A stretch of DNA of 61,512 nt, filler included, from Nitrospinae bacterium RIFCSPLOWO2_12_FULL_45_22 (GCA_001803565.1; 5 parts of 5 records of this genome joined end to end with filler, not necessarily neighbours in it), one strand, 5' to 3'; shown: positions 7,096 through 43,746, counted from the first letter of the whole stretch. The notes: a model not told the origin generated them from the letters alone. Translations and numbers: made by a program.

Positions 7096-7195
7096 NNNNN
7101 NNNNNNNNNNNNNNNNNNNNNNNNNNNNNNNNNNNNNNNTTAATTAATTAANNNNNNNNNNNNNNNNNNNNNNNNNNNNNNNNNNNNNNNNNNNN
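7096..7195. other. artificial contig linker
   Basis: N44-TTAATTAATTAA-N44 (stops in all frames). Confidence 0.97.
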
Positions 7196-8099
7196 TAGCT
7201 ATTCCCTGGATAGGCTGACCAGTTTTAGGGTCCAGGATATGGCTATAGCGTTTACCATTTAAGACAAAAAAATTCTCATAGTTGCCTGAGGTAGCTACTG
7301 CCTGGTCTCTTACCTGTAGGGTACTGACAACCCGGTCCGGGACAAAAGGGTGCCGGATACCAAGATGCCAAAATTTTCTTGTGGGAGGATGTCCCAGGGC
7401 AAACAGGTCTCCACCGGCATTAACCAGGGCCCGCTGTATGCCATTATTTTTCAGAACCTCAATAGCCCTGTCTACTGCATACCCTTTAGCTATACCACCC
7501 AGGTCAATCGCCATCCCAGGTAACTTCAATTTAACCCGGTTCTTTTCCTGGTCAATAAGGATGTTTTTGTAATTGACCAGGGGTAAAAGCTTGTGGATTT
7601 CTTCTTCCGGAGGCATATGGCCGCTTTTCTTGTGAAAGCCCCATAATTGCACCAGGGGAGCTACCGTGATGTCAAAAGCGCCTCCACTGAGTTCTGCTAT
7701 CCCTATGGCCATATTAATAACCTTCAATACCTCTGGCGCTACCCTAACATAATCCCTCCCAGCTTGCTGATTGATTAAGGATAATTGGCTATCAGCTTTA
7801 TAATTACTCATCAATCCATCTACCCGGCTAATTGCCTGAAAAGCCAATTCTATAGCCTCTTCTTCGGGTTCCCGGCCCGCCTTGATCTCTTTGGGGGAAG
7901 AGGTATCTCTAAAGACAGTAATCTCGACCATAGTACCCATCATGGGCCTAGCCCTTTCTACCTTTGACTCCTGGCTATAACCCAGAGAAAAAGGGAGTAT
8001 GGCCAGGCATAGAAGCCATACTCCCGCTCCCTGCCTAAATCGGCTTAGGACGGTTAAATAGATTAATACTAAGCGGATCACTATAAGACTCTTCTCCAT
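7196..8099 (-). CDS. apbE: FAD:protein FMN transferase ApbE (3' truncated at contig end)
   Basis: MGT, S.Y...S.LS.IN, GAFDITV.PL..LWGF, DLGGIAKGYAVD, NAGGD, ATSGNYE, HILDPKTG. Confidence 0.95.
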
Positions 8100-8192
8100 A
8101 TCTAGCTAAATGTCTACAACCAATTTAGAAAATAAAATATGATAGCAAAGCTTGCCTTGGAGGTTTTTTAAGGGACCAGGAGTCGAATCCAG

Positions 8193-8315
8193 GTAACAGT
8201 TCAGCCCCTATCGAAAATGAATGTCATTCCGACCGAAGGGAGGAATCTTTATTTACCTCCGGTCTGGGAAAGATTTCTCGCTATGCTCGAAATGACAAAG
8301 AACCTGAACGGTTAC
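8193..8315. mobile_element. MITE, GTAAC-ended family, carrying a GTCATT-type REP pair
   Basis: ends GTAACAGTTCAG / CTGAACGGTTAC; flanks GAATCCAG / GAATCTAC; internal GTCATTCCGA...TCGAAATGAC. Confidence 0.65.
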
Positions 8316-8362
8316 GAATCTACTTTTTGTTACCAATCAAATCTTACCCTCTTTTTTTGGAC

Positions 8363-8415
8363 TTGACAACGTTGATCATCCCATATAAAATAGATGCAAT
8401 TGATTTTTTATCGCA
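8363..8415 (+). promoter_or_regulatory. sigma70 promoter followed by Fur-family-like operator
   Basis: TTGACA(8363)-17bp-TAAAAT(8386); TGCAATTGATTTTTTATCGCA at 8395-8415 (imperfect 21-bp dyad). Confidence 0.55.
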
Positions 8416-9013
8416 AATAGGTGGGTATCAGCCATGATAGAACAACGCTTTGCCACCCTTCACCAGGCCAGTTACCCTGATCTATTCGCTCTATTCAGGA
8501 TATACTCCACGAAGGGTCTCAAAGGAGAAAGATTCTTCGGCTGCCCCTTCGCCTGGCTCAGGGCTTAGGCTCAGAATGACCGTACCAGATGGGATAAATG
8601 GGTAAACGGTTACAAAGTTTTTATCTCTCTTGCCCTGGGGAAGGGAGATAGGGAAGCAATAGGTGGTGATGTTTATGGTCGTGAAGGTCTATATTATTGC
8701 TGAGGGTGATTTTTAGCATAAATTTTACCTACTGATTGAGATTGAATAAAAATTAAATCTGCTTGCTATATTGAAGGGCAAGGGGCATGACCTCCAGCCA
8801 CAATAGGTAATAATCAGGATGAAGAAAAGGTAGGAGCGGGTAGTTAATTTAGGTCTGGCATTTTATTGGGAAGGGGGGTGATATCAGTATGAGGAAGTAT
8901 TGGTTCAGGTTAACCCTTGAAAGGGCCTCACCGACTTTTCTAGATAATAGGGGTAGTTTTTGTATAAAGGTGAGGATATAGGAAAATACGATATACAAAA
9001 ATAGACTAACATT

Positions 9014-9166
9014 GATGAAGTCGTAAAAAGTCAAAAATCAGACGGCACAGTAAAAAGCTCCAGATGCAAGGCGCGCAAATCCTGAGGAGTGAGGCGTACT
9101 TAGAGGTACGCCGCAACGACGAAGGATGCAACGTAACGCCGCAGATGGACTTTTTGCGAAGCCGTC
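9014..9166. mobile_element. 153-bp MITE with perfect 6-bp flanking direct repeat
   Basis: imperfect TIRs GATGAAGTCGTAAAAAGTC / GACTTTTTGCGAAGCCGTC; AACATT at 9008-9013 and 9167-9172. Confidence 0.8.
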
Positions 9167-9187
9167 AACATTAAGGAGGGAAAAGAG

Positions 9188-10603
9188 ATGCGTAGGTGGA
9201 TAAGCCTGGTGATAATCTTCTTGATATTAAACCTTTCTTCAGTAATGGCTCAGGAGCTTGGGGATAAGGCTGCCAAGTTAGAACAGAATATTGAAGAGCT
9301 AAGGAAGGAGTTGGAGTCTTTAAGAGTAGAGCAGAAGGCATTGAAGGAACTGCAGGGACAACAGACCGGTGGGTTGGCAGAAGAATTGAGAAAGTTAAAG
9401 CTCGAAATATTTGCCCCCGAGGCAGAGTATAAGAGCTATACCGGATTGGGGCCGGCTGCCTCTAAGGTCTATTTTAAGGATCGAGGTCTTTCTATTGGGG
9501 GCTATGGTGAGCTTAATTATGAGGGGTATCAACACAAGAGCAAGAAGGACCGGGCTGATGCCTCGAGGTTTGTGCTTTACACTGGCTATAAGTTTACTGA
9601 TAGGATATTGATGAATGCTGAGTTTGAATATGAACATGCTGGTATTAATAACGTAGGAGGGAGTACTGGTGGTGTTACTCCCTCGGTTTCCAGCAGTCGG
9701 AATCCTGAGGTTTATCTTGAGTTCGGTTACTTGGATTTCCTCTTACATCCTAGGTTTAACCTGAGGAGTGGCTTACTCCTTACCCCTATCGGTTTAATTA
9801 ACGAGTATCATGAGCCTACAATCTTTCATGGGGTACTGAGACCGGATGTAGAAAGGATACTTATCCCCTCCACCTGGCGGGATTTAGGGGTGATGGGTTA
9901 TGGTGGAATGGGAGATTTTGAGTATAAGGTGGGGCTGCTTAATGGACTCCGGTCTGATAGACTTAGCTCTTCTGACTGGATAAGAGGGGGGAGACAGCAA
10001 GGTGCAGGGGCAAGTGCTGAGGGTCTTGCTGGCGTAGGGAGGCTTGATTACAAAGGAATCCCCGGACTAACATTAGGTGGGAGCTATTATTTTGGACAGG
10101 CAGATTTTGGGCGCGGTGCGGATACGGATCCAATTGGCCCAGGAGAAAAGAAGGCCGATATAAACCTATGGGAGTTGCATGCGGATTATAAGTTTAAGGG
10201 TTTAGAGCTCAGGGGGCTCTTTACCCGGGGTTCTCTGGATGGGAATCGGGCTTTTGATCTCTCCCCTCCAGGAGGTGTTGGAGAGGAGGTTCAAGGATGG
10301 TATCTGGAAACGGCTTATGATCTGATGCCCCTAATCCGTGCCGGTTTAGCAATGTCTTTAACCCCTTTTATGAGATATGAAAACTATGACACCCATGAGC
10401 AAGTTTTTTCGGGAAGAAAAAACCCCACCCTTGACCGTGAGGTCATAACCCTTGGTTTGGGCTTCAAACCTCATCCTAATGTGGTGATCAAGGCAGATTA
10501 TCAATGGAGGGGTACGGACTCTAGACTTCCGGTTGGCAAGGGAGCCGGTAGGGACGAGGGTAAGATTGATCAATTTAATGTTGGTATAGGGTTTATCTTT
10601 TAA
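9188..10603 (+). CDS. outer-membrane porin-like beta-barrel with N-terminal coiled coil
   Basis: signal peptide, coiled coil, SIGGYGELNY, RFVLYTGYKF, EFEYEH, C-terminal GIGFIF; RBS AAGGAGG. Confidence 0.85.
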   Translation: MRRWISLVIIFLILNLSSVMAQELGDKAAKLEQNIEELRKELESLRVEQKALKELQGQQTGGLAEELRKLKLEIFAPEAEYKSYTGLGPAASKVYFKDRGLSIGGYGELNYEGYQHKSKKDRADASRFVLYTGYKFTDRILMNAEFEYEHAGINNVGGSTGGVTPSVSSSRNPEVYLEFGYLDFLLHPRFNLRSGLLLTPIGLINEYHEPTIFHGVLRPDVERILIPSTWRDLGVMGYGGMGDFEYKVGLLNGLRSDRLSSSDWIRGGRQQGAGASAEGLAGVGRLDYKGIPGLTLGGSYYFGQADFGRGADTDPIGPGEKKADINLWELHADYKFKGLELRGLFTRGSLDGNRAFDLSPPGGVGEEVQGWYLETAYDLMPLIRAGLAMSLTPFMRYENYDTHEQVFSGRKNPTLDREVITLGLGFKPHPNVVIKADYQWRGTDSRLPVGKGAGRDEGKIDQFNVGIGFIF

Positions 10604-10618
10604 ACTAATGATGGCTTA

Positions 10619-10652
10619 ATCTGCCTGGGTAGAAGAATCTGCCCAGGCAGAT
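10619..10652 (+). other. intergenic 15-bp stem-loop (mRNA stability/attenuation candidate)
   Basis: ATCTGCCTGGGTAGA-agaa-TCTGCCCAGGCAGAT, no U-tract. Confidence 0.6.
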
Positions 10653-11214
10653 GGAAGAGGAGGAGGGCTTAGTGAAAGGCATTAGCTTTATCTTCTTTTT
10701 GGTTCTTCTGACACCTATTACTTCATCCTGGGCGGCGGTTTTTAAGTTACCCATGGAGGCAGTAAAAGAAGTCTTTCCTGAGGCCAGGGAAGTAGAAATT
10801 AAAAACATTATTTTGACTCCGGAGCAGGTGCTCAAGATAGAGAAAATTTCAAAATTAAAGATAAATGATCGGCTGGTAAGTTTCTACCTGGGAAAGAAAG
10901 GGGGCGATGTCCTTGGTTTTGCCGTCATTGATACCCATATAGTCAGGACCCAACCAGAGACCTTCCTCCTGATCATGGATAAGAGAGGAGAGGTGAAGCA
11001 CGTAGAGGTGATTGCCTTTTACGAACCCTTAGAGTATCTGCTCTCCCAGAAATGGTTAAATTTATTGATCGGTAAGGGGCTAAACGACAAACTTAGGGTT
11101 AAGGTGGACCTGCCTCATGTTACCGGGGCTACCATGTCAGCAAGAGCTATAATAGAAGCAGTGAGGAAGAATCTTGCTATCTATCAAGTAGTTTTTGGAA
11201 AGGATAAACCATGA
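10651..11214 (+). CDS. exported FMN-binding (flavinylation substrate) protein; start probably GTG 10672
   Basis: signal peptide ending SWA; VTGATMS matches [S/T]GA[S/T] flavinylation motif; W...F.GK-like context. Confidence 0.85.
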   Translation: MEEEEGLVKGISFIFFLVLLTPITSSWAAVFKLPMEAVKEVFPEAREVEIKNIILTPEQVLKIEKISKLKINDRLVSFYLGKKGGDVLGFAVIDTHIVRTQPETFLLIMDKRGEVKHVEVIAFYEPLEYLLSQKWLNLLIGKGLNDKLRVKVDLPHVTGATMSARAIIEAVRKNLAIYQVVFGKDKP

Positions 11215-11693
11215 AGTTTTTTCTCTCTCATAATTTGAAAAATAACTCCCATATTAAGCTCGTAATCCCCTTTTTTATCTCGTTTATAGTTCTCTTTCTG
11301 ATAGGGGACTGCTTATATTCCATTAATAATCTTGGCCTGACTCCTGTATCTATAACAGACTACTATAGGGGAAATGAAGAGAAGCTTTTGGAACCAAGGG
11401 GGATAGTGTTAATCCTTGAGGAAGTCCATATAAGGTCATTCCTCTTTGGATTTATGCTACTTTCCTTGTCCAGTCTTATATTGCAGACCAATATAAGCCC
11501 CATAAGTAAAAAGATATTAATTATTACCTCCTTTACTAGTGCCCTGATGGATTCGGTAGGAGGAATATTTATCGCCTACCTCAATTCCATCTTTGCTTAC
11601 CTGAAGATATTATCTCTTCTGGGCCTATACATTTCCTTAACCATAATGATCCTGATCATAATGGCCTACCTCTGGGGAGAAGAGGAGGGATAG
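11211..11693 (+). CDS. 4-TM membrane protein, paralog 1
   Basis: four hydrophobic segments; loop G.TP..I.DYYRGNEE...P....LEEVH; ATGA overlap with upstream gene. Confidence 0.75.
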   Translation: MKFFLSHNLKNNSHIKLVIPFFISFIVLFLIGDCLYSINNLGLTPVSITDYYRGNEEKLLEPRGIVLILEEVHIRSFLFGFMLLSLSSLILQTNISPISKKILIITSFTSALMDSVGGIFIAYLNSIFAYLKILSLLGLYISLTIMILIIMAYLWGEEEG

Positions 11694-11696
11694 AGA

Positions 11697-12155
11697 ATGA
11701 CTAAAGAGTCCTTACGGATAATATTGTTCTTTTTCACCATTTTCTTGATAGTTCAAGCCCTGAGTGGCATATCTCTTTTTGTGGTCAAGATAGGGTATAA
11801 TCCTGCGCATATAGCAGAGTATTTCCTGGGATCAGAAGATGAATTTATCAAGGCCAAGAGCTTTTGGGGACTTCTGGAGGTCGCTGTTCCGCACCTAGTT
11901 GGGATAAGTATTTATATCCTGGTTATGGGGCATTTCCTTTTTCTCTTTCCCCTCAAGAAAGGACTTATCGTCAGTGTCACTTATTTGGCTTCCTTAGGTG
12001 ATGTGCTAAGTGGTTTCTTAATAAGATATGGCGGGGCTTTTTTTTCTCCTTTTAAGATTTTATTCTTTGTCCTCTTTGAGCTAACAATTTGTTATTTCAT
12101 CGGGATGTTAGTGATCGCACTTTTTCAAGATAAGTTTTTCCCCGATAGGGTTTAA
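11697..12155 (+). CDS. 4-TM membrane protein, paralog 2
   Basis: four hydrophobic segments; loop G.NP..I.EYFLGSED.......LEVAVPH...MGHF. Confidence 0.75.
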   Translation: MTKESLRIILFFFTIFLIVQALSGISLFVVKIGYNPAHIAEYFLGSEDEFIKAKSFWGLLEVAVPHLVGISIYILVMGHFLFLFPLKKGLIVSVTYLASLGDVLSGFLIRYGGAFFSPFKILFFVLFELTICYFIGMLVIALFQDKFFPDRV

Positions 12156-12168
12156 TCATTTCGTTACT

Positions 12169-12591
12169 TCAGCGGCATTTGGTGCAATAGCCGAAAATCT
12201 GCAAGCAGTGGGAATCAGGGGTAAAATCATAATCTGTGCAGACTCGTTCTTGGATCTCTTCTATGGTAGGGTTGCTAAATTCCAGCACACTACCGCATTT
12301 AAGGCAGACCAGATGGTCATGGTGTTTATGACCATAGGTATGTTCGTAGTGGGTATGCTCTTCCCCGAAGCTAATCTTTCTTACCAGTTGGCTATTTACT
12401 AAGAGCTCCAGGGTGCGATAGATAGTAGCCCGCGATACCCGGATGTCTTTTTTCTTTAACCGGAAGAGGAGGTCATCGGCTTCAAAATGATCATGGGAGG
12501 CAAATACTTCCTCTAATATGGCCTTCCTCTCCGGAGTCCATTTCATCTTCTTCTCTGCCAGGAACTTATGGAAGAGCTCAATGTTTTCCAA
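12169..12591 (-). CDS. fur: Fur-family metalloregulator
   Basis: T.ER..IL, VSRATIYRTL, HHDHLVCLKCG, CTKC. Confidence 0.93.
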   Translation of the reverse strand: MENIELFHKFLAEKKMKWTPERKAILEEVFASHDHFEADDLLFRLKKKDIRVSRATIYRTLELLVNSQLVRKISFGEEHTHYEHTYGHKHHDHLVCLKCGSVLEFSNPTIEEIQERVCTDYDFTPDSHCLQIFGYCTKCR

Positions 12592-12596
12592 AAAGA

Positions 12597-13382
12597 TTAG
12601 CCCCCAAGTTCTTGTTGGGCAAAGAGGGCCGCCCCTAAGGCGCCAAATAGTTGAGGATCGGTGGTGTAGGTAGGAATCTTGGTCTTTATCTTGTCCTCAA
12701 TCATCTTAACTACCCCGATATTCTTGGCTACCCCACCCGAGATCACTACGTCTTCTTCAATCCCTATTCGATAAAGCATAGATACCAGCCGGTTAGCTAC
12801 AGAATGGTTTATACCAGCCAGGATATCTATCGGGTCTTTCTTCTCGGCAATGAGGGAGATAACCTCTGACTCGGCAAAGACACTGCATTGGCTGCTGATC
12901 TCAACTATCTCTTTGGCTTTGAGAGAAATCTTACCCATTTCTTCCAGCTTTACATCTAAGATGCGAGCCATAGTCTCCAGGAACTTGCCGGTGCCAGCCG
13001 CACACTTATCATTCAGGACAAAGTCTTTTACTACGCCATGCTTATCTATCTTGATTACCTTGGCATCCTGACCGCCGATATCAATCACGGTGCGGGCTTT
13101 ATTATTGTTCCAGAAGGCCCCTTTACCGTGGCAAGCGATCTCAGTAACTATCTTTTTTGCAAAAGGTATATCTACCCTCCCATAGCCGGTACCAATTGTT
13201 AGATTGATATCGTTCATGGTAACGTTTTTCCCTTTCAGAGCCTTTTCCATGGCATTCTTAGCCGTCACATCTGACAGTGGGTCATTAGGAACGATACTGT
13301 GGGCAACAATCTTGCCATCCTGCAAAATGACTACTTTTCCTGAGGTTGAGCCTACATCACAGCCTGCAACTAACATTCTCAC
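12597..13382 (-). CDS. acyl-CoA dehydratase activase (HgdC/BadF/BcrAD ATPase family)
   Basis: GCDVGSTSGK, TGYGR, EIACH, IDIGGQDAK, NDKCAAGTG, CSVFAESE, SGGVAKN, GALGAA. Confidence 0.92.
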   Translation of the reverse strand: MRMLVAGCDVGSTSGKVVILQDGKIVAHSIVPNDPLSDVTAKNAMEKALKGKNVTMNDINLTIGTGYGRVDIPFAKKIVTEIACHGKGAFWNNNKARTVIDIGGQDAKVIKIDKHGVVKDFVLNDKCAAGTGKFLETMARILDVKLEEMGKISLKAKEIVEISSQCSVFAESEVISLIAEKKDPIDILAGINHSVANRLVSMLYRIGIEEDVVISGGVAKNIGVVKMIEDKIKTKIPTYTTDPQLFGALGAALFAQQELGG

Positions 13383-13515
13383 TTCCTCCTATAAAGACTG
13401 GATTCTAAATCATTGATAAATTAGCGTTTAGGGAAATTCCCTCCTTTAAGATAATTTTTTATCTTAATAACAAAAGCTAATGGGAATGTCAAGGAGAAAA
13501 GGCACAAAAAAAACC

Positions 13516-14864: not shown

Positions 14865-14964
14865 NNNNNNNNNNNNNNNNNNNNNNNNNNNNNNNNNNNN
14901 NNNNNNNNTTAATTAATTAANNNNNNNNNNNNNNNNNNNNNNNNNNNNNNNNNNNNNNNNNNNN
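14865..14964. other. artificial contig linker
   Basis: N44-TTAATTAATTAA-N44. Confidence 0.97.
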
Positions 14965-14965
14965 C

Positions 14966-16195
14966 CTGATAAAAGAGCATGGTAGTAAAGTCATATCACA
15001 GGTAACAGTAGAACAGGCCTATGGTGGGATGCGAGGGGTAAAAGGTCTAGTTTGTGATACTTCTTTGGTAGAGCCTGACACCGGACTGGTTATTCGTGGT
15101 ATCCCCATCCTAGAACTAACCGACAAGTTACCCGAAGAGATATTATATCTATTATTAACTGGTGAGCTCCCGGACAGGGCAGCCCTCAACTCGCTCCAGT
15201 CCGAACTTAAGGAAAGGTCAGAGGTACCAGCCTATGTCTGGGATGTATTGAAGGCCATGCCGCCAGACTCACATCCTATGGCCATGTTGAATACAGCCAT
15301 CCTGGTAATGGAGAGAGAGTCTATCTTTCGGAAGCGATATACCGAAGGAATAAGGCGTGAAGAGTATTGGGAAGTTATGTTAGAAGATTGTCTAACACTT
15401 ATTGCCCGGCTCCCCGCCGTCGCAGCCGCCATCTATCGGCAGCGATACAATAAAGGGCCACGCATTCCTTCGGATAAAAAACTGGATTGGGGAGCAGATT
15501 ATGCCCATATGACCGGTATCCCTGACCCAACGGGCAACTTTGCCAGGCTGATGCAGTTATATCTTACCCTGCATAGCGACCATGAGAGCGGCAATGTCAG
15601 CGCCTTTACTACCCATACCGTAGGCTCTGCCCTATCAGATGCCTATTATGCCCTCTCAGCAGGCCTGAATGGCTTAGCTGGCCCCTTGCATGGTCTGGCT
15701 AACCAGGAATGCCTGGGCTGGATCATCATGGTCAAAGAGAAATTTGGGAGGGTGCCAACCAATGAGCAACTGGAAAAGTTTGCCTGGGAGACACTGAACT
15801 CGGGTAAGGTAGTCCCGGGTTATGGTCACGCCGTTTTGAGGATTACGGACCCGCGCTTTGATGCCTTCATGGCCTTTGGCAAGAAGTATTGCGCTGATGA
15901 CCCGGTATTCCAGCTTGTGGCAAAAGTATTCGATGTAGTGCCAGAGGTTCTTAAGCAGGTACAGAAGATCAAAGACCCCTGGCCCAATGTGGACGCTATC
16001 TCTGGCTCACTCCTGCATCACTTTGGCATGACCGAGTTTGATTACTATACGGTCTTGTTCAGTATCTCCCGGGCCCTGGGTGTATGCTCCCAACTGGTAA
16101 TCAGCCGGGGTATTCAATCGGCCATTGTGCGGCCCAAGTCCGTCACCACAGAATGGATAAAAAAGACAGTTGGGGAGCAGATTATGCCCATATGA
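14966..16195 (+). CDS. gltA: citrate (Si)-synthase, eukaryote-like type (5' partial; last residues altered by duplication junction)
   Basis: YGGMRG, LHSDHESGNVSA, GLNGLAGPLHGLANQE, VPGYGHAVLR.TDPR, PWPNVDA.SG. Confidence 0.93.
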   Translation: MIKEHGSKVISQVTVEQAYGGMRGVKGLVCDTSLVEPDTGLVIRGIPILELTDKLPEEILYLLLTGELPDRAALNSLQSELKERSEVPAYVWDVLKAMPPDSHPMAMLNTAILVMERESIFRKRYTEGIRREEYWEVMLEDCLTLIARLPAVAAAIYRQRYNKGPRIPSDKKLDWGADYAHMTGIPDPTGNFARLMQLYLTLHSDHESGNVSAFTTHTVGSALSDAYYALSAGLNGLAGPLHGLANQECLGWIIMVKEKFGRVPTNEQLEKFAWETLNSGKVVPGYGHAVLRITDPRFDAFMAFGKKYCADDPVFQLVAKVFDVVPEVLKQVQKIKDPWPNVDAISGSLLHHFGMTEFDYYTVLFSISRALGVCSQLVISRGIQSAIVRPKSVTTEWIKKTVGEQIMPI

Positions 16196-16853
16196 CCGGT
16201 ATCCCTGACCCAACGGGCAACTTTGCCAGGCTGATGCAGTTATATCTTACCCTGCATAGCGACCATGAGAGCGGCAATGTCAGCGCCTTTACTACCCATA
16301 CCGTAGGCTCTGCCCTATCAGATGCCTATTATGCCCTCTCAGCAGGCCTGAATGGCTTAGCTGGCCCCTTGCATGGTCTGGCTAACCAGGAATGCCTGGG
16401 CTGGATCATCATGGTCAAAGAGAAATTTGGGAGGGTGCCAACCAATGAGCAACTGGAAAAGTTTGCCTGGGAGACACTGAACTCGGGTAAGGTAGTCCCG
16501 GGTTATGGTCACGCCGTTTTGAGGATTACGGACCCGCGCTTTGATGCCTTCATGGCCTTTGGCAAGAAGTATTGCGCTGATGACCCGGTATTCCAGCTTG
16601 TGGCAAAAGTATTCGATGTAGTGCCAGAGGTTCTTAAGCAGGTACAGAAGATCAAAGACCCCTGGCCCAATGTGGACGCTATCTCTGGCTCACTCCTGCA
16701 TCACTTTGGCATGACCGAGTTTGATTACTATACGGTCTTGTTCAGTATCTCCCGGGCCCTGGGTGTATGCTCCCAACTGGTAATCAGCCGGGGTATTCAA
16801 TCGGCCATTGTGCGGCCCAAGTCCGTCACCACAGAATGGATAAAAAAGACAGT
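15487..16853 (+). repeat. exact 683-bp tandem duplication of gltA 3' half
   Basis: 15487-16169 repeated at 16170-16852; second copy ends with native KKTVGAA* (16866). Confidence 0.95.
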
Positions 16854-16929
16854 AGGAGCAGCATAGTAGTATATCGTTCTATAAATAACGTTGCATAACT
16901 CAAAATTGGTACATAAATCATTGCCACGT

Positions 16930-17060
16930 TAATGAGTTCCCACTGAAAAATGATATGTCGAGCAAGCTCGACCACTACATACATTGGGGAAATCAGTCTA
17001 ATACAACGATATGTAGTGGCAAAGCTTGCTTTGCAAGGATTTTTCAGTGACGACTAATTA
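16930..17060. mobile_element. MITE-like element enclosing GTAG-type REPs
   Basis: ends TAATGAGTTCCCACTGAAAAAT / ATTTTTCAGTGACGACTAATTA; internal TCGAGCAAGCTCGACCACTAC and GTAGTGGCAAAGCTTGCTTTGC. Confidence 0.6.
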
Positions 17061-20735: not shown

Positions 20736-20835
20736 NNNNNNNNNNNNNNNNNNNNNNNNNNNNNNNNNNNNNNNNNNNNTTAATTAATTAANNNNNNNNN
20801 NNNNNNNNNNNNNNNNNNNNNNNNNNNNNNNNNNN
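20736..20835. other. artificial contig linker
   Basis: N44-TTAATTAATTAA-N44. Confidence 0.97.
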
Positions 20836-24623: not shown

Positions 24624-24760
24624 GTAGGGTAAAAGCTTGCCTTCATTTATATTATGCGAGCAAGCTCGACCACTACAGGTATTATCAGAACAGCCCTATC
24701 ATAGAATAGGTAGTGGCAAAGCTTGCTTTGTAAAGATTTTTTCAGGGGCAACTAATTAAT
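24624..24760. repeat. GTAG-type REP cluster
   Basis: GTAGGGTAAAAGCTTGCC, CGAGCAAGCTCGACCACTAC, GTAGTGGCAAAGCTTGCTTTG, same end as the 17060 element. Confidence 0.65.
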
Positions 24761-37363: not shown

Positions 37364-37873
37364 ATGAAAGCACTTGTCCCTGTAGAATTGATTGAAAGAA
37401 AACTCCTGCTGATCCGAGGCAAAAAGGTTATGCTAGATGCAGACCTTGCTGGGCTTTACGGTGTGGAGGTGAAACAGCTAAAAAGGCAGGTCAGACGAAA
37501 TATAGGACGTTTTCCAGCAGATTTCATGATCCAATTATCAAAAGAAGAATATGAATCTTTAAGGCGCCATTTTGGCGCCTTAAAAAGAGGCGAGCATTCC
37601 AAATACATGCCCTATGCCTTTACCGAGCAAGGGGTCGCTATGCTTTCCTGTGTTTTGAACAGTGAAAGGGCCGTAAAGGTAAACATAGAGATTATGCGGG
37701 CATTTGTCAGACTCAGACAGATGCTTGCCTCAAATGCCGAACTGGCGTGTAAACTCGACGCTCTTGAAAAGAAATACGATATGCAGTTCAAAGTCGTCTT
37801 TGACGCAATCCGGCAATTGATGACTCCGCCGGAGACGAAGAAAAAGAAAATTCGGAGGGAAGAAGAAAAATGA
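37364..37873 (+). CDS. ORF6N-domain DNA-binding protein
   Basis: [54 protein letters not shown]. Confidence 0.9.
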
Positions 37874-37899
37874 TTTGGAGAACTTGAAGGGGTTGAGGC

Positions 37900-39160
37900 A
37901 TGGCTTTTAAAGTTAATGAACTTACATCAGGAAGGTTTAACCTTCCATCAGAATGGAGTATAGTCAAAGTTCGAGACGTAGCAAAAATCAATGGGTCAAG
38001 CATACAAAGAAACTATAATCATGAATGGATTGAATATATTGATATCGCATCCGTTGAAAAAGGAACTATCAAATCGCTTCAAGTGTTACCATTAAAAGAA
38101 GCCCCAAGTCGAGCCAGGAGAATTGTCCAAGATAATGACATATTAATTTCTTCTGTTAGGCCAAATCTTGAACATTACGTTTTCATTAAGAAGGCTAAAC
38201 CAAATACAGTCGCGTCAACTGGGTTTGCTGTTATAACTCCAAAAAATGTACAACCTCGTTTTTTGTATTACTATTTAACAACAAAACCATTCACAAATTA
38301 TTTGACGATAATTGCAGAAAGCCATACATCTGCATATCCATCATTTAATCCTGATGTAATTGAAAATTCTGAATTAATCTTACCAAGTGAAGTAGAACAA
38401 AAAGCCATTGCACACATCCTCGGCGATTTGGATGATAAGATTGAACTGAACAGAAAAATAAACGAGACCCTGGAGGCTATGGCAAGAGCAATATTCAAAT
38501 CATGGTTTGTTGATTTTGATCCCATCCCTGGCCTCGGCCCGCATAAAGAATGGCAGGACTCACCCCTTGGGAAGATCCCCAAAGGGGTGGAGGGTGGGTT
38601 CGCTCGGAGAACTATGTGAAATTGTTATGGGTCAATCGCCACCTGGTGAAACATATAATGAGATGGGCGAAGGGCTACCTTTCTATCAAGGAATTCGTGA
38701 CTTTGGTTTTCGCTTTCCTTCAAGGCGTGTTTATTGTAATGCTCCAACCAGATTAGCTAACGAGGGCGATGTGCTTCTGAGTGTTCGTGCACCGGTAGGA
38801 AGTCTAAACATTTCAAGCGAAAAATGTGCAATAGGTCGAGGTGTCGCCTCATTAAGAATAAACGGACAGCACTACGGATTCTTGTATTATCTTATGAAAG
38901 AAACCCAATGGGGATGGGAGAAATATGAGGCTGAAGGCACGGTTTTTGGCTCAGCTACTAAGAAAGACGTTCAAAATTTCTCTACTATCCTTCCACCCAC
39001 ACAGACTATTTCTCGTTTCAACGAAGCGGTTTTTTCAATAGACCAAATGATCAGTAACAATGAAATACAATCCCGTACCCTTGCTGCTATCCGTGATGCA
39101 TTACTGCCGAAGCTATTGTCAGGGGAGATAAGGGTGAAGGATACGGAGAAGTCGCTATGA
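37900..39160 (+). pseudogene. hsdS: type I RM specificity subunit, frameshifted by 1-bp insertion near 38581-38587
   Basis: TRD1 + EQKAIAHIL..LDDKIELN...FKSWFVDF; IPKG|WRVG split between frames; TRD2 ending RDALLPKLLSGEIRV. Confidence 0.9.
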
Positions 39161-39936
39161 GTATTCTGAGTTATTTCGATCATGTCAATAATGGTTGTTT
39201 TATTCTTAAATTGCAACCAAAAGAAAGGGATGCGTTTTTATCGAAACTCCCCAACAAGTATAGAAAGTGCTATATAACAGATCAAAAAATAGAGGAATTA
39301 CTTTCAAGGCATAACGGAAATATTTCTGCCAAGAAAATTATCCAAAGCAAAATTCCAGACCCAGGTAGTGTAATGGCTGGAGACTTCGGGGAAATTACAG
39401 CGTATTTCATACTTAAAGGAAAATACCTTCCAATAAAGTTGTTCGGACCTAAGAAATGGCGATGGAAGAATGATAGAAATAAGGCGCTTCTGTTCACAGA
39501 TGTAATAATGTTTGATAGAAATGATACACCCTCCGAAAAGGATTTAGTTGTGTTAGCTGAAGTAAAGACAAAATCAACGAAGAGAACTAAGAACCCAATT
39601 CAACAGGCAATAGAAGGAGTTCAAAAGGACTATGTTTCACGATTTTCTCGCACTTTAATCTGGTTAAAGGATATATACACAAGCGTCGCCCCAAATGCCG
39701 CAAGAATTGAATATCTCGACAGATTCATTAATTCTCAAGAGGATAAATACGGGAAATACACAAAGCATTTTAAAGCAGTTGCTATTATAGACAGTTCATT
39801 TCTTGATAATGATTTAGAAGAAAATATCGAAGACCTTGAAATAGAAGATGATTTTGAGGTTATCGTGATCTCTATAGATGACCTAAAAACGGCATATGAA
39901 TCCACTTATAAGACGATGCTACAAACATATGAATAG
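39157..39936 (+). CDS. hamA: Hachiman HamA-like (DUF1837) nuclease
   Basis: GDFGE, D...E.K (FTDV...LAEVKT) PD-(D/E)xK-like pattern; directly upstream of SF2 helicase. Confidence 0.75.
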   Translation: MSILSYFDHVNNGCFILKLQPKERDAFLSKLPNKYRKCYITDQKIEELLSRHNGNISAKKIIQSKIPDPGSVMAGDFGEITAYFILKGKYLPIKLFGPKKWRWKNDRNKALLFTDVIMFDRNDTPSEKDLVVLAEVKTKSTKRTKNPIQQAIEGVQKDYVSRFSRTLIWLKDIYTSVAPNAARIEYLDRFINSQEDKYGKYTKHFKAVAIIDSSFLDNDLEENIEDLEIEDDFEVIVISIDDLKTAYESTYKTMLQTYE

Positions 39937-39945
39937 GGTCAGCAT

Positions 39946-42939
39946 ATGAGAAAAAACTTAAAGCTGTGGATAGCTCAATCTGAATCCTGGCACACTTTTG
40001 TTGATTTTAGATTGCCGGAAAAGGCTATCGCAAAATATCCATTCTTGGAACGTACAGATGATTTCTACATTGCCCTCTTTGGTAAACTTTTTGACCTTCT
40101 AAATGATCCAAAATTTGAAGAAAAGAAAGATGACCTTCTTGCTATAGGGAAAGGCTTGGAAATTTATTCTCTTAAAAGTACAAGAAATAAGTTTAGAGGA
40201 GTCAATTATTCCGAGAATATCCTGTATGCTGCAAGCCTTTACTATCTGGCAGACTATTCTGCATCAGCATGGCTCTTGGCAAACCTTTTCTCTGCAAATC
40301 AATATGGTTCAGATGCCGATAAATTCATTTCATGTTTCTTGAGCCGCAACATTCAGGTAGATAATGCTTACGTCTCACAACTTCGCAAATATTTGCACAG
40401 AGGAGACATAACTATTTTAGATGAAATGCGGGAGACGTTTTCTCAAAGAACTAAAGACGCTCTCAAGGACTCACCTCATGAATATACGTTTTACAAATTA
40501 GCATCTTGTCTAATCGATCGCTTCTATACGAATAATATTTGGATTGATTTATTAGGGCAAAATCACTATGAACCACAAGTATGGAAGAAATATGTTGAAG
40601 CAAATCTAAAGCGGAAGCCGCCAGTTTGGGATTTCTTTCCTTCGCAGAAGGAGGCCATAAACAGAGGAATACTAAAAGAAAATAAATCTTTTTCTTTTCA
40701 GATGCCTACCAGTGCTGGCAAAACTGCTCTTTGCGAGTTAATCATTTATAATGAAAAGAGAATGAATCCAGATGCAAAAATATTATTCCTTGCTCCTTTT
40801 CGCGCTCTGGCATCGGAATTGAAATCTGGCTTTAGTAAAAAGATTGCTCAGTTAGGAATTAAGTCAAAAACTATTTACGGGGGCAATATAGTTACTCAGG
40901 ATGAAAAAAAAGCCATACAAAAAGTAGACCTTCTAATCTCAACCCCAGAAAAATTTATGGCAGTGGAAAGTTTTATACCTGACATTTACGAGTTGTTTCA
41001 GGTAATCATCTGTGACGAAGGACATCTACTTGACAACGAGCAAAGGGGTTTAAATTATGAGATCTTACTCTCTAAGTTTAGAAGTCCATCAGTAGGCGAA
41101 AAGAAATTCATATTTTTATCCGCCATAATTCCCAATATAGAAGAAATAAACACTTGGCTGGGTGGGGATCAAACTTCCTTAGTAAAGTCAGAATATAGGC
41201 CAACAGAGCTGAACTTTGCCTTCCTCAAACAAGGAAATGATAAAACCTATTATTTGGATGTCAATCCCACAAAAGGAAGACCTGAGAATTATCAAATATC
41301 TAAATTTTTGTCTAAAATAGATTTCCAATACATTAATCCGGCGACAAATCGGAAAAAGACATATCCTTTTAGTAGCATCAAAGCAAGAGCAGTTGCTTCT
41401 GCCCTAAAAGCTGTGCCGTCGGGGACAGTTGCACTATTTGCCCCTCAAAAAGGTCAAGGGGGCGTGTCCGGATTGGCAGAAGAAGTCATTAAGCAGGTTG
41501 ATAAATTGTCATTGCCTAATCCTGCAAATTACTCGTCAAGCTCGGTAGCATTACTAAAAGAGTACTGTGAAAAGCTTTTTGGAAAAGAATATCTGCTCAC
41601 TAGGCTGATTGATTATGGCGCTGTATTTCATCATGGGGATCTGCCACAGGATGTTCACGAAGCAATAGAGGATTCACTGCGCGATGGTAGTGTAAGACTT
41701 ATTATCTGCACAAATACCTTAGCTGAAGGAGTTAATCTGCCAATAAGAACGATAGTTGTCCATTCAGCTAAAAGATTTGATTATGAGTCGAAAAGATTAG
41801 TGGACATGGAAATAAGAGATTTAAAAAACATTACAGGCAGAGCTGGTAGAGCTGGTAAAGAAACTAAGGGATTCATAATAATTACAAATCCAACAGATTT
41901 CAATACAGCTAAGAAGGTAATAAAAGATGAGGGCGGCAACAATGTTACAGGATTTTTATACAAAATAGTCCATGCTGTGGCAAAGTTTGTTCAGGACAAA
42001 AGGCTGACCTTATCAAATGACATTTTAGATGAACAGAATGAGCGGTTTAAACAATTGATTGATTCAATAGATATCTCCCTAATTAGTTTAATGGCTGAGG
42101 AAATCGAGACCGAGAAACTTAGAGAGCATATCAACACTCTAGTAGAGCAAACATTTGCCTTTCGGCAGGCAAATGTTGATGAAAAAAAGGCTTTGCGGGA
42201 CATATTCAACCTTCGAGGTGATGTCCTAAGGCCATATGTAGAATCAAAGGAATATCGAACCATCAAAAAGAGTGGGGCATCAGTAAGACTATATAAGAGC
42301 GTTCTTGATTCGATAGACTTAGAGGATGAATTATGGCGAGCAACCAACGACCCAGTATCAGAAACATGGTTACAGGTGATAAAAGACAATGTTCTTGCGC
42401 TTCCTCAGCCAAAATTTAGCATAGAGGAATTCAACAAATATAATGGAACTAATCTCTCGTCCGACGATATTATTAAGATAATTAAACTCTGGATTAAAGG
42501 TCATGCATATAAGGATATCGCGGACAAATCACAAATAGAAGTTGATACAATTCTTAAGATATTTTCTTCATTAATTGGGTTCCATCTGCAAAGCATCATC
42601 TCAAGCATTATTAGAATAGCCGACAGCAAATTATTAGAAAAGGACAAAAATCTGTCGGAAACTTTGTCATATTGGCCACAATATTTGCTTTACGGCTTAA
42701 AAAATAGACTGGAATTAGACCTCGTAGAACTTGGATTCACCAATAGAATCGGCATTATGGCGCTGAGCGAGGCGATCAAAGACGAAGGATTTACCTATGC
42801 CGAACTCAAAAAGCTAAGAGACTACATAAAGAGAAATAGTGATCATCTTTTTGAGAGAATCGGTTCTTCGATACCTAAAATATCTTATGAAAAACTAAAG
42901 GAAACCGTCGATTATTTAAATCGGAAGAATATTCATTGA
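39946..42939 (+). CDS. hamB: Hachiman HamB-like Ski2-type SF2 helicase
   Basis: PTSAGKT, TPEK, DEGH, LSA, HHGDL, TNTLAEGVNLP, N..GRAGR; long N-terminal helical region. Confidence 0.78.
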   Translation: MRKNLKLWIAQSESWHTFVDFRLPEKAIAKYPFLERTDDFYIALFGKLFDLLNDPKFEEKKDDLLAIGKGLEIYSLKSTRNKFRGVNYSENILYAASLYYLADYSASAWLLANLFSANQYGSDADKFISCFLSRNIQVDNAYVSQLRKYLHRGDITILDEMRETFSQRTKDALKDSPHEYTFYKLASCLIDRFYTNNIWIDLLGQNHYEPQVWKKYVEANLKRKPPVWDFFPSQKEAINRGILKENKSFSFQMPTSAGKTALCELIIYNEKRMNPDAKILFLAPFRALASELKSGFSKKIAQLGIKSKTIYGGNIVTQDEKKAIQKVDLLISTPEKFMAVESFIPDIYELFQVIICDEGHLLDNEQRGLNYEILLSKFRSPSVGEKKFIFLSAIIPNIEEINTWLGGDQTSLVKSEYRPTELNFAFLKQGNDKTYYLDVNPTKGRPENYQISKFLSKIDFQYINPATNRKKTYPFSSIKARAVASALKAVPSGTVALFAPQKGQGGVSGLAEEVIKQVDKLSLPNPANYSSSSVALLKEYCEKLFGKEYLLTRLIDYGAVFHHGDLPQDVHEAIEDSLRDGSVRLIICTNTLAEGVNLPIRTIVVHSAKRFDYESKRLVDMEIRDLKNITGRAGRAGKETKGFIIITNPTDFNTAKKVIKDEGGNNVTGFLYKIVHAVAKFVQDKRLTLSNDILDEQNERFKQLIDSIDISLISLMAEEIETEKLREHINTLVEQTFAFRQANVDEKKALRDIFNLRGDVLRPYVESKEYRTIKKSGASVRLYKSVLDSIDLEDELWRATNDPVSETWLQVIKDNVLALPQPKFSIEEFNKYNGTNLSSDDIIKIIKLWIKGHAYKDIADKSQIEVDTILKIFSSLIGFHLQSIISSIIRIADSKLLEKDKNLSETLSYWPQYLLYGLKNRLELDLVELGFTNRIGIMALSEAIKDEGFTYAELKKLRDYIKRNSDHLFERIGSSIPKISYEKLKETVDYLNRKNIH

Positions 42940-43592
42940 AAATGAAAAACTCTTATCGCTACGATACATCCTCTCTCCCCGAAGCCCAGTTTGAGCCGGG
43001 CTCACATGGCCGCGTCCTCAAGAACAAGCTCGGCATAAAGAGCAAAAAGGACATGGACGAGGTTGAATCGGTTGCCCTTAAAACCGCTATAGATAATCTT
43101 CTCGGAATATACGATGAGCACCACTGTTTTACGGCAGCGGACATTAGAACAATGCATAAAGTCTGGCTTGGTGAAATTTATGAGTGGGCAGGTGAATACA
43201 GGCAGGTTAATGTGAGCAAAGGGGATTTTCCTTTTGCTGCTGCAAAGCAGATTCCATTTTTAATGGCAGAATTTGAAAAAGGTCATCTCCACAAGCATAC
43301 ACCCTGCAATTTCAAATCGTTAGAGCGAGTTATTCAGGCGCTGGCAGAGGTTCATGTTGAACTTGTCCTTATTCATCCATTCCGTGAAGGCAATGGCAGG
43401 GTTGCAAGAATACTCTCGACCATTATGGCATTTCAGGCAGGCTTGCCGATGCTGAACTTTAAAGATATTACACACAGAAAAAAGAAGGAGTATTTTACCG
43501 CAATCAACAGAGGCTTGAGCAGGGACTATAAACCAATGGAAATACTTTTTGAGAAAATCATTGAGAGGTCTATCAAATCTAAGTCCGTTTAG
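42936..43592 (+). CDS. Fic-domain AMPylase, class I (no internal inhibitory motif seen)
   Basis: HPFREGNGRVAR canonical motif; VLKNKLGI; YEWAGEYR. Confidence 0.93.
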   Translation: MKMKNSYRYDTSSLPEAQFEPGSHGRVLKNKLGIKSKKDMDEVESVALKTAIDNLLGIYDEHHCFTAADIRTMHKVWLGEIYEWAGEYRQVNVSKGDFPFAAAKQIPFLMAEFEKGHLHKHTPCNFKSLERVIQALAEVHVELVLIHPFREGNGRVARILSTIMAFQAGLPMLNFKDITHRKKKEYFTAINRGLSRDYKPMEILFEKIIERSIKSKSV

Positions 43593-43740: not shown

Positions 43741-43746
43741 GTTTTT

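Follow-up and report, generated by a model that had tools for sequence, protein, structure and literature searches.

The genes described here form one copy of a widespread and apparently undescribed bacterial module, in which a porin, an RnfG-like FMN protein, a membrane protein of the Aq_1264_TM family and the flavin transferase ApbE are conserved together. They lie in a 61,512-nucleotide stretch of DNA (the window) from Nitrospinae bacterium RIFCSPLOWO2_12_FULL_45_22, and no paper describing such a module was found in the literature. As a whole, the module may be an iron-regulated conduit that passes electrons from quinol to FMN and on to a substrate admitted by the porin, a reading to which we give about an even chance.

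Gene organization

The window consists of five contigs joined through N44-TTAATTAATTAA-N44 linkers, and all genes of the module are located on a single contig (7196..14864), as an earlier reading of the DNA by itself (the sequence-only reading) had stated; the linker at 7096..7195 precedes the end of apbE. The gene for ApbE (FAD:protein FMN transferase; 7196..8099, minus strand) is separated by a 1088-nt spacer (8100..9187) from a plus-strand operon, and the coordinates bear out the proposed divergent arrangement. The operon starts with the gene for a porin-like outer-membrane beta-barrel protein (OMP, 9188..10603), followed by those for an RnfG/NqrC-like FMN-binding protein that is exported or anchored (10651..11214) and for two 4-TM Aq_1264_TM (PF27139) proteins, TM-A (11211..11693) and TM-B (11697..12155). 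It is tightly packed, as claimed: the start of TM-A overlaps the FMN-protein gene by 4 nt, and TM-A and TM-B are 3 nt apart. A Fur-family regulator gene (12169..12591, minus strand; Pfam FUR, 1.3e-32) ends 13 nt past TM-B and does converge on the operon; it apparently shares one transcript with the adjoining BcrAD/BadFG-type activase gene (12597..13382). In addition, a perfect 11-bp hairpin (ATCTGCCTGGG / CCCAGGCAGAT, 12-nt loop) can be read from the plus-strand sequence at 10619..10652, and its 3' arm extends into the start codon (ATG) of the FMN-protein gene.

The apbE product matches Pfam ApbE (PF02424) with 262.4 bits against a cut-off of 25.6 bits (6.3e-78), and its translation begins with an N-terminal hydrophobic stretch, which is a signal or an anchor. 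The match covers profile positions 1-223 of 266; the contig edge removes the gene's 3' end and with it the C-terminal ~40 positions of the profile.

Conservation of the module across relatives

Relatives were picked by a motif of the TM protein only. A relative is encoded by 329 of the 357 matches to this motif in species genomes; the 80 best, which come from other species and all belong to the canonical single-gene subfamily, were analyzed. Homologs of the window's FMN protein were present in all 80 loci, of its porin in 74, of ApbE in 58 and of Fur in 15; these counts do not represent independent events, since the loci come from related MAGs. The FMN-protein gene adjoins the TM gene in every locus, and in 62 of 79 loci the TM gene starts between -4 and +6 nt from the FMN stop. 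The neighborhood conservation that had been proposed as a check was found, and the refuting condition that homologs of the 4-TM pair would not co-occur with apbE or FMN-binding genes did not hold; fusions of the TM protein to ApbE (see below) add to this. The order OMP>FMN>TM>ApbE was observed in 36 loci, OMP>FMN>TM in 19 and Fur>ApbE>OMP>FMN>TM in eight, plus variants. No homolog of the BcrAD activase was detected in the 80 loci, and no further gene family exceeded 14 of 80. Imelysin/DHOR genes were found in ten loci and ferritin-like genes in eight, and a di-heme CCP_MauG gene lies directly 5' of the FMN gene in five, being placed between the porin and FMN genes in all four loci where both genes are present.

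The porin-like outer-membrane protein

The OMP carries a signal peptide, and its N-terminal part includes a coiled coil. Its Pfam matches (OMP_b-brl, BBP2 and Porin_2) are all below threshold, and Porin_O_P (PF07396) gave no match to it at E values up to 10; a relative scored 15.1 bits against the same model, under the 20.9-bit cut-off. Its Atlas neighbors are 'porin family' clusters, some with Porin_O_P, which is annotated on 19% and 85% of the members in two of them. The porin assignment of the sequence-only reading is thereby kept in the weaker form 'porin-like'.

Rodionov (2004, PMC545781) predicted a hypothetical Fur-regulated porin, 'psp', in Geobacter metallireducens and Desulfuromonas. 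According to the passages on it, 'psp' has Fur boxes in front of its gene, shows weak similarity to phosphate-selective porins (PF07396) and has homologs in Aquifex aeolicus and uncultured bacteria; in these passages, it is treated as a lone gene with a possible role in ferrous iron transport. The porin similarity, the Fur boxes and the Aquifex and uncultured homologs fit the porin family of our module, the two being set side by side by description only, and the module's porin may be this 'psp'. The passages on 'psp' in that paper make no mention of FMN, TM or ApbE genes (PMC545781). PF27139 also takes its name from an Aquifex protein.

The FMN protein

The FMN protein does carry the predicted flavinylation site, in the sequence HVTGATMS, with Thr161 (codon 11131..11133) as the predicted acceptor. 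The protein matches Pfam FMN_bind at 1.4e-3 (19.7 bits, under the 22-bit cut-off), and the profile of its family matches RnfG (9eri_G) at 5.8e-9 with the flavinylation sites aligned. Moreover, when its AF2 model (pLDDT 90.0) was searched with Foldseek, the top 18 matches were all RnfG or NqrC (E 1.5e-5 to 4.6e-3, probability 1.00). Profile comparison and predicted structure together confirm an FMN_bind fold of the RnfG/NqrC type.

Of 80 family members, 77 have Thr and two have Ser at the predicted acceptor position, and the full [ST]GA[ST] motif occurs in 28. The flavinylation motif has been given as D-x-x-[S/T]-G-A-[S/T] (PMC12052999). The window protein reads P-H-V-T-G-A-T, keeping T-G-A-T and carrying Pro instead of Asp at position -6; replacement of this Asp by Ala was reported to have minor effects only (PMC12052999).

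The Aq_1264_TM proteins

TM-A and TM-B proved to be paralogs, as supposed (25% identity, E 2e-7; profile-profile E 3.6e-39). PF27139.1 is annotated on the clusters of TM-A, TM-B and all nine close matches, this membership being a precomputed cluster annotation. The Atlas clusters nearest to the window proteins are 99-100% Aq_1264_TM, with a TM-score of 0.91. The sequence-only reading had suggested a little-described or undescribed electron conduit; the family of the pair does already exist in Pfam, but PF27139 carries no known function.

The claim that the pair differs from the known partner classes was supported by each search. TM-A, TM-B and three relatives were scanned against Pfam at E values up to 10, and no match to NapH, Ferric_reduct/MsrQ, PepSY_TM, DsbD, NqrB/RnfD or DUF4405 was detected; a PDB sequence search found no solved relative. 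Foldseek returned no match to the TM model at E 0.001 or better; its cytochrome matches were not significant (best E 0.31), and chains of the FoxB, MsrQ and DUF4405 types were not among its matches. In addition, Aq_1264_TM is outside the five flavinylation-associated classes of 2021 (PMC8238504) and the additions of 2024 (PMC11334425), as far as the relevant passages of these papers name them.

In the 80 sampled relatives, there is one TM gene, and three histidines are conserved in helix 2 of its product. By the positive-inside rule, the end of this helix with the E..H.H motif lies on the periplasmic side. Over these three positions, 80 aligned members read HHH (39), -HH (31), H-- (9) or HH- (1). 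TM-A is of the degenerate 'H--' type and keeps one of the three histidines, His73 (codon 11427..11429), and TM-B is of the '-HH' type and keeps His66 (11892..11894) and His79 (11931..11933), 13 residues apart on helix 2. H66, H79 and K120 of TM-B are invariant across 31 sequences. At least 24 of 150 listed family representatives contain two matched stretches (232-600 residues); P0017 has the architecture TM-TM-ApbE, and P0018, P0024 and P0034 are TM-ApbE. The model of one fused form is a single confident 8-helix unit (pLDDT 91.2, pTM 0.87), and in 22 aligned fused forms only H72, H228, H241, K193, Y204, G207 and K283 are invariant. Sequence comparison identifies the window's two genes as a derived form of a single TM gene, which also occurs as a fused pair: the two-gene arrangement put forward previously is present in the window, but it is not the form found in the sampled relatives.

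Fur boxes and the link to iron

In the relatives, a Fur box with at most three mismatches is present 5' of 20 of 73 operons. The frequency in controls is about 1%, with 19 boxes in 1460 random segments and 35 in 3650 composition-matched shuffles. The enriched boxes fit the Fur consensus TGATAATnATTATCA with 1-3 mismatches. The fur-family genes adjoining relatives' modules have Fur (iron) models as their best NCBIfam matches, and so does the window regulator (12169..12591), whose matches are below the model cut-offs, with PerR (3.2e-22) and Zur models lower; from its sequence, it could be PerR- or Zur-like. Leads to DtxR-type repressors were also seen among the family representatives and the Atlas clusters.

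In the window, the sequence-only reading had placed a Fur-like dyad over a near-consensus promoter. The promoter-like site, TTGACA-17-TAAAAT (8363..8391, plus strand), does match the consensus at 11 of 12 positions, ~800 nt 5' of the OMP start, in a region where such sites are not enriched (10 seen, 12.3 expected). The dyad is no better than chance. A dyad search of 8340..8440, allowing no mismatch in 6-bp arms and up to one in 7-bp arms, gave nothing, and the region has no E. coli Fur box with three or fewer mismatches. With four mismatches, TGACAACGTTGATCA (8364..8378) comes closest to a 7-1-7 box, and much of its score is due to the -35 hexamer. Three weak sites with four mismatches each to the 7-1-7 box (8212, 8364 and 8808) occur in the 1088-nt spacer; shuffled spacers have at least one site with four or fewer mismatches in 56% of cases and at least three in 4.8%. 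A delta-type box at 8212 with three mismatches is likewise at chance level. The spacer also contains a MITE-like inverted repeat (8222..8297) and has no Rfam family at a credible score. The iron link is supported in the relatives by their Fur boxes, adjacent fur genes, imelysin/DHOR genes and ferritins, but the operator in the window is at chance level. The module is probably turned on by iron shortage.

Proposed mechanism and alternative explanations

We propose that ApbE puts FMN on Thr161 of the periplasmic protein and that TM-A and TM-B form a parallel heterodimer, corresponding to a presumed homodimer of one TM gene in most sampled relatives and to a single fused 8-TM chain elsewhere. The helix-2 histidines of the dimer would probably hold heme b, and the conduit is probably heme-b dependent. 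Because the conserved histidines are all on one helix of the 4-TM unit, a dimer would be needed for heme ligation. The window heterodimer keeps A-H73, B-H66 and B-H79 only, so at most one bis-His heme would be possible and B-H79 would be partnerless. The i, i+13 spacing of H66 and H79 is not known to be the commonest di-heme spacing. Electrons probably travel through the module from the membrane into the periplasm: the dimer would hand electrons of the quinol pool to the flavin, which would reduce a substrate admitted by the dedicated porin. The likeliest substrate is Fe(III), which would then be assimilated; in certain lineages, a periplasmic di-heme peroxidase-type enzyme may receive the flavin's electrons instead. 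Iron probably controls expression, via Fur in many lineages.

A different role for the membrane protein, which we consider unlikely, is that of a Fe2+ permease or metal handler: the flavoprotein would reduce porin-admitted Fe(III) with electrons from an unlinked donor, and the dimer would import the Fe(II). This would agree with the Fur boxes of the relatives, with a module that has no other conserved inner-membrane transporter, and with one representative that joins the TM domain to Fe_dep_repr_C and FeoA. The periplasm-facing E..H.H motif of helix 2, whose Glu is present in 64 of 80 members, also resembles metal-binding motifs. However, 12 of 80 members carry K, T or Q in place of the Glu, and what is invariant is not a polar pathway but histidines located towards either end of one helix. 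A permease would also leave the flavoprotein of an otherwise self-contained four-gene module without an electron source, and the CCP and DHOR insertions need electrons, not metal import. There is a small chance that the TM protein instead serves ApbE, by exporting or handing over FAD or by anchoring or organizing the enzyme at the membrane. TM-ApbE fusions occur in four representative clusters, the TM gene is followed by apbE in 42 of 80 loci, in many of which the ORFs abut or overlap, and the question of FAD delivery to ApbE was raised in a 2025 review (PMC12052999). The TM gene is nevertheless tied more closely to the FMN-protein gene, which all 80 loci have, than to apbE, which 58 have (in 16 of them upstream); apbE is divergent in the window, and at least 17 loci extend at least 1 kb 3' of the TM gene with no apbE within reach. 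A 4-TM bundle with conserved histidines would also be an improbable nucleotide exporter.

It is similarly doubtful that the module serves peroxide or oxidative-stress defense, with electrons passing from quinol through FMN to a di-heme peroxidase under a PerR-like regulator and iron assimilation not being its purpose. CCP_MauG genes in five of 80 operons and DHOR 'putative peroxidase' genes near ten point in this direction, as does a window regulator that matches PerR models and reaches the cut-off of no Fur model. But 65 of 80 loci lack peroxidase genes, as does the window's contig, the enriched boxes fit the Fur consensus, the adjacent regulators match Fur (iron) models best, and the imelysin and ferritin neighbors point to iron. 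Finally, the 4-TM genes could be unrelated to flavinylation and adjacent to it by accident. The neighboring genes of the window alone prove nothing, and the tie to flavinylation rests on sequence; yet the FMN-protein gene was found in 80 of 80 loci picked by the TM motif only, and together with the translational coupling and the TM-ApbE fusions this contradicts a fortuitous adjacency, which we regard as very improbable.

Comparison with known systems

The FMN subunits of Rnf and Na+-NQR (RnfG/NqrC) share the fold of the window FMN protein, and the RnfG site aligns with it. The partner here, however, is a small 4-TM protein; RnfD/NqrB, RnfA/E and other Rnf/Nqr subunits were found neither on the contig nor in the 80 loci. 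SdhC and SdhD are two small paralogous membrane subunits that link a flavoprotein to a quinone site and hold heme b between two histidines, one from each subunit. Their likeness to the TM pair is one of arrangement, and topology, helix number and partners differ.

In styrene oxide isomerase (SOI, 8pnu), a membrane protein of small size, heme b sits at the subunit interface and is bound via one histidine; SOI is a trimeric isomerase that uses heme as a Lewis acid (PMC11374702). Its match to half of the fused TM model is not significant (probability 0.85, target-normalized TM-score 0.44, E 0.46), and one Atlas cluster has the Aq_1264_TM label on 25% of its members and the SOI label on 13%. Unlike Aq_1264_TM, SOI as described there has no flavoprotein, ApbE or porin context, and we take this model-based likeness as a lead only.

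The flavinylation-associated membrane cytochromes described previously are PepSY-like (FoxB), MsrQ-like and DUF4405/FezC proteins (Meheust 2021, PMC8238504; Huang 2024, PMC11334425). According to the sections of these papers dealing with them, they resemble Aq_1264_TM in that their genes are coupled to those for ApbE and an FMN-binding protein, that transmembrane histidines are their most conserved residues and that ties to iron (Fur, iron-uptake genes) recur; dimers have been proposed for MsrQ and FezC, as we propose here. The Pfam scan and the Foldseek search showed no similarity between them and Aq_1264_TM, which further differs in being a 4-TM unit with its conserved histidines on one helix, and its module, unlike theirs, includes a dedicated porin in the operon.

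Organization of the predicted flavinylation gene cluster

The window consists of five contigs, and its four joins (7096..7195, 14865..14964, 20736..20835 and 46000..46099) are all identical linkers of 44 N, TTAATTAATTAA and 44 N. Because these contigs are artificially joined, gene neighbourhood across linkers is meaningless, and apbE and other edge genes are truncated. The genes to the left of 7096 (MoxR ATPase) and to the right of 14864 (TCA enzymes, complex I and others) are not known neighbours of the cluster, which lies entirely within the contig at 7196..14864, in agreement with the sequence-only reading. ORF calls and Pfam searches also confirmed the layout that this reading had described. 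An apbE gene (7196..8099, minus strand; Pfam ApbE, 6.3e-78), whose 3' end is cut by the contig edge, is separated by a 1088-nt spacer from a divergent, tightly packed plus-strand operon encoding a porin-like outer membrane protein (OMP; 9188..10603), an FMN protein (10651..11214) and two four-helix membrane proteins, TM-A (11211..11693, with an ATGA overlap with the FMN-protein gene) and TM-B (11697..12155). A Fur-family gene (12169..12591, minus strand) is convergent to this operon, 13 nt downstream of TM-B, and sits 6 nt behind a BcrAD/BadFG-type activase gene (12597..13382, minus strand).

A search of Rfam over 8000..9300 gave nothing credible (the sole match being SNORA38, E 0.37), and thus no riboswitch or sRNA accounting for the long spacer was recovered. 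The spacer contains an inverted repeat with 29-nt arms (8222..8297), and a hairpin-plus-T-run element (GGCAAAGCTTGC...TTTTT) is repeated in three intergenic places of the window (8135..8170, 17009..17044 and 24706..24741). Such small repeat elements may explain the 1.1-kb distance. In addition, a perfect 11-bp hairpin (10619..10652) is located between the porin and FMN-protein genes, with its 3' arm covering the first bases of the FMN-protein start codon; it may act as an intercistronic stabiliser or as a translational brake setting the porin:flavoprotein ratio.

Two further features were observed on other contigs. Citrate synthase is represented by two overlapping ORFs (15029..16866) with a common 300-nt direct repeat of 98% identity (15472..15771 and 16155..16454), which may reflect a partial duplication in tandem or else an artefact of assembly. 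A low-GC (37-40%) island at 37364..44297 has the look of a defence island, with type I restriction S-subunit fragments, a Hachiman-like pair of HamA and a DEAD-box helicase, Fic/DOC and an N-terminal fragment of HsdR.

The flavoprotein and the porin-like protein

The FMN protein scored 19.7 bits against Pfam FMN_bind, under the 22-bit cut-off. A profile built from 42 family members matched RnfG of a solved Rnf complex (5.8e-9) with the flavinylation site aligned, and the top 18 Foldseek matches of its AF2 model (pLDDT 90.0) were RnfG and NqrC chains only. On the basis of the RnfG profile match and Foldseek, the protein is firmly placed in the FMN_bind family. The TGAT site proposed from the sequence is indeed present (P-H-V-T-G-A-T), with Thr161 as the predicted acceptor. 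Compared with the motif D-x-x-[S/T]-G-A-[S/T], as quoted from a 2025 ApbE review (PMC12052999), the core is kept and the Asp is absent. Among 80 related loci from other species genomes, most FMN proteins depart from the canonical site and read x-G-[A/S]-T; position -3 is Ala, Met or Val and position -1 is often Ser (such as I-A-G-S-T and I-M-G-S-T), with the acceptor Thr retained. The site of a solved RnfG is likewise T-G-S-T. Motif searches demanding [ST]GA[ST] would miss 52/80 of the related FMN proteins.

The OMP has a signal peptide followed by an N-terminal coiled coil and then a barrel. Its Pfam porin matches were all below threshold (OMP_b-brl, 22.5 vs 28.7 bits; also BBP2 and Porin_2), and its neighbours in the ESM Atlas of protein clusters were 'porin family' clusters, part of them with Porin_O_P. 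A PDB sequence search with the porin returned coiled-coil noise only, and no NCBIfam model was found for the porin or for the TM proteins. Moreover, the Atlas includes models in which a porin-like part is joined to ApbE (81 members; 741 aa) or to a full DtxR-type repressor (132 members; 595 aa). These joins may be merged gene calls, and adjacency is indicated even so.

A family of four-helix membrane proteins without a solved relative

TM-A and TM-B share 25% identity (E 2e-7), and hhalign of their subfamily profiles gave a probability of 99.96% (E 3.6e-39); on this sequence evidence they are paralogues. Both are assigned to Pfam PF27139 ('Aq_1264_TM', a name obtained via the Atlas) in precomputed annotation, and the Pfam scans gave no match to it because the model is newer than the release scanned. 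A profile search against 1.84 billion representatives identified 497 relatives at E <= 0.001. Among the 150 of these that were listed, 24 are tandem two-domain forms (232-600 residues) and five are longer than 400 residues; four of the five (P0017, P0018, P0024 and P0034) have ApbE behind the TM domain(s), and the fifth bears FeoA and the C-terminal portion of an iron repressor of the DtxR type. This architecture (TM domain, Fe_dep_repr_C and FeoA; P0075) is an odd one, as is that of P0044 (TM domain and PilZ; 269 residues). Part of the odd TM and porin architectures may be merged gene calls; the PilZ fusion, if real, hints at c-di-GMP control of one member of the family.

The histidine positions of helix 2 were named H0, H2 and H15 (E-x-x-H-x-H, then a His 13 residues after the second His). 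Across 80 aligned single-domain members, 39 carry the full set, 31 combine H2 and H15 with a Pro ahead of H2, nine have H0 only and one has H0 and H2. TM-A is of the H0-only kind (His73) and TM-B of the H2+H15 kind (His66 and His79), and the same order, H0-only and then H2+H15, was found in the fused proteins (22 aligned), whose only invariant residues are the corresponding histidines (the single one of the first part and the two of the second), along with two Lys, one Tyr and one Gly. The high-confidence model of a fused member is a single 8-helix unit (pLDDT 91.2, pTM 0.87). Given the fused order and this single fold, the best reading of the window pair is a pseudo-symmetric dimer encoded in split form, and the single-gene form is presumably a homodimer. 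Charge counts over 80 sequences, interpreted by the positive-inside rule, place the N-terminus, loop 2 and the C-terminus inside; the E..H.H end of helix 2, like the long loop 1, falls on the periplasmic side, where the FMN domain is located.

Published membrane partners in flavinylation systems include NapH-, MsrQ- and PepSY-like proteins, DsbD and Nqr/Rnf-like proteins, as far as the main survey text lists them (PMC8238504), and DUF4405/FezC, from excerpts of a later study (PMC11334425). Pfam scans of the TM proteins at E values up to 10 detected none of these classes, profile searches found no solved relative, and Foldseek with the model of the fused form gave nothing at E <= 0.001, its weak matches being generic helical membrane proteins. 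The initial impression that the pair resembles no known partner was thus upheld by all three methods. Styrene oxide isomerase is among the weak matches (probability 0.85; TM-score 0.44 to the target); it is described (PMC11374702) as a small protein holding haem b at a subunit interface via one His. One Atlas cluster carries both Aq_1264_TM and styrene oxide isomerase labels, each on a minority of its members. We treat this likeness as a lead only.

Conservation of the module in other genomes

One genome per species was scanned with the motif [STA]HFHLFAM, derived from a six-sequence alignment, which yielded 357 matches, of which 329 were confirmed and the best 80 kept. The TM protein was therefore the sole selection criterion for this set, which covers the canonical single-gene subfamily, and the other module genes were sought in all ORFs of the 80 loci using the window's own proteins as queries. 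Homologues of the FMN protein were found in 80/80 loci and of ApbE in 58/80, which bears out the association with flavinylation genes anticipated from the window; the porin was found in 74/80, a Fur-family gene in 15/80 and the BcrAD activase in 0/80. No other gene family is common to more than 14 of the 80 loci. The commonest orders are OMP>FMN>TM>ApbE (36 loci), OMP>FMN>TM (19) and Fur>ApbE>OMP>FMN>TM (8), and the TM gene starts -4 to +6 nt from the FMN-protein stop in 62/79 loci. No apbE was found in 22 loci; in four of these the contig ends less than 300 nt past the TM gene, and most of the others are methanotroph-labelled. All 80 loci of this single-gene subfamily have one TM gene. By record titles, they belong to Binatia (21), Methylococcales-type (14), 'delta proteobacteria' (14), Bdellovibrionota (7), Myxococcota (4), Entotheonella (3) and others (17); they are MAGs, many of them related, and these counts are not independent events.

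In five methanotroph-labelled loci (L026, 4982..6340; L057, 5023..6234; L022, L065 and L035), a di-haem cytochrome c peroxidase (CCP_MauG) gene is located directly upstream of the FMN gene; in four of these loci, the porin gene flanks it on the other side. No apbE is within reach there.

Association with iron regulation

The sequence-only reading had placed a Fur-like dyad over a near-consensus promoter. This was not supported: no dyad with perfect 6-bp arms, or with 7-bp arms and at most one mismatch, was detected around the promoter-like site at 8363..8391, which has four mismatches to the 7-1-7 Fur box, its resemblance largely reflecting the TTGACA hexamer. The same kind of match occurs at a promoter-like site at 13649, and all three Fur consensus forms searched for in the window (the E. 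coli 19-mer, the 7-1-7 box and the delta-proteobacterial form) were at chance level. A candidate operator for the Fur-family protein is a different dyad, GATAAttttTTATC (within AAGATAAttttTTATCTT; 13450..13463), which lies upstream of the bcrAD-like activase and fur pair and is absent from the operon's spacer; patterns of this type occur four times in the window vs 0.78 expected.

In the relatives, a 7-1-7 box with at most three mismatches was identified within 250 nt of the first gene in 20/73 operons with enough upstream sequence (for example, TGATAATGATTCTCA in Binatia-labelled and TGATAATGATTTGCA in methanotroph-labelled loci), compared with 19/1460 segments drawn at random from these loci (Fisher p 8e-18, uncorrected for relatedness) and 35/3650 shuffles of the same upstream regions. 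Iron-related neighbours comprise imelysin with DHOR (10 loci), ferritin-like (8) and fur (15) genes, at least one being present in 26/80. Imelysin (Peptidase_M75) and DHOR-imelysin genes directly follow the TM gene in some loci (such as L015, 7443..8816 and 9368..11824). Larger iron clusters can thus include the module.

Proposed function and comparison with known systems

The module combines an outer-membrane entry, a periplasmic one-flavin carrier, its maturation enzyme and one small membrane protein; it lacks a cytoplasmic domain as well as any further conserved membrane component. We regard it as an ApbE-dependent extracytosolic redox system, a known type, here combined with a new membrane partner and a porin of its own; the copy in the window is a derived form with two TM genes. 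In the simplest working scheme, electrons would pass from quinol to the TM dimer, then to FMN and to the substrate. The TM histidines, the only invariant polar residues, could serve as haem b ligands, in parallel with other flavinylation-associated cytochromes. In the homodimeric form, the histidines would suffice for two haems across the membrane. In the window heterodimer, A-His73 and B-His66 would provide a single bis-His site close to the periplasm, B-His79 being left unpaired, and with this one site the heterodimer may oxidise quinol on the outer side.

Other roles have to be weighed against this scheme. The TM protein might be a metal permease; the CCP neighbours in five loci and the DHOR neighbours in ten need an electron donor, which favours a conduit over a permease. 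It could also be a helper of ApbE or FAD, or the module could serve peroxide defence. For the electron conduit, the Fur boxes and gene neighbours would make Fe(III) reduction the most likely main role. We put forward a tentative proposal, to which we give clearly less than an even chance: Aq_1264_TM proteins would be a new class of dimeric four-helix membrane redox proteins, with a fold lacking a solved relative, and would form, with a dedicated porin, an RnfG-like flavoprotein and ApbE, a self-contained, Fur-controlled, TonB-independent pathway of reductive iron acquisition. The module occurs in hundreds of species, most of them uncultured. In some lineages, this unit would be a general quinol-to-periplasm electron tap for di-haem peroxidase-like enzymes, and the window form would be a heterodimeric single-haem derivative.

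If true, this proposal would add a further class of membrane partner for ApbE-dependent extracytosolic electron transfer and provide the first functional hypothesis for PF27139. It points to a compact porin-based route of iron reduction and uptake in groups known mostly from metagenomes, which by record titles are Binatia, Bdellovibrionota, methanotrophic Methylococcales, Myxococcota and Entotheonella. As the module is small (four genes) and its predictions are clear, a direct test by heterologous expression is feasible. Literature searches on Aq_1264, flavinylation, ApbE, Fur and porin, and the consulted sections of the two surveys of flavinylation systems, gave no description of the module and no role for PF27139, and a full-text search for 'Aq_1264' returned no paper; the large supplementary tables of the 2021 survey, which lie outside such searches, could list these clusters as unassigned.

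Two likenesses to known systems emerged from the literature. For Geobacter metallireducens and Desulfuromonas, a hypothetical porin under Fur control, 'psp', was predicted by Rodionov et al. (2004; PMC545781), with weak similarity to PF07396 and homologues in Aquifex aeolicus. As described there, psp fits the porin family of the window, and the proposed pathway, if true, would explain this porin twenty years after its prediction. In the flavinylation-associated cytochromes (PMC11334425), the central histidines are also the best-conserved residues, as they are in the TM family.
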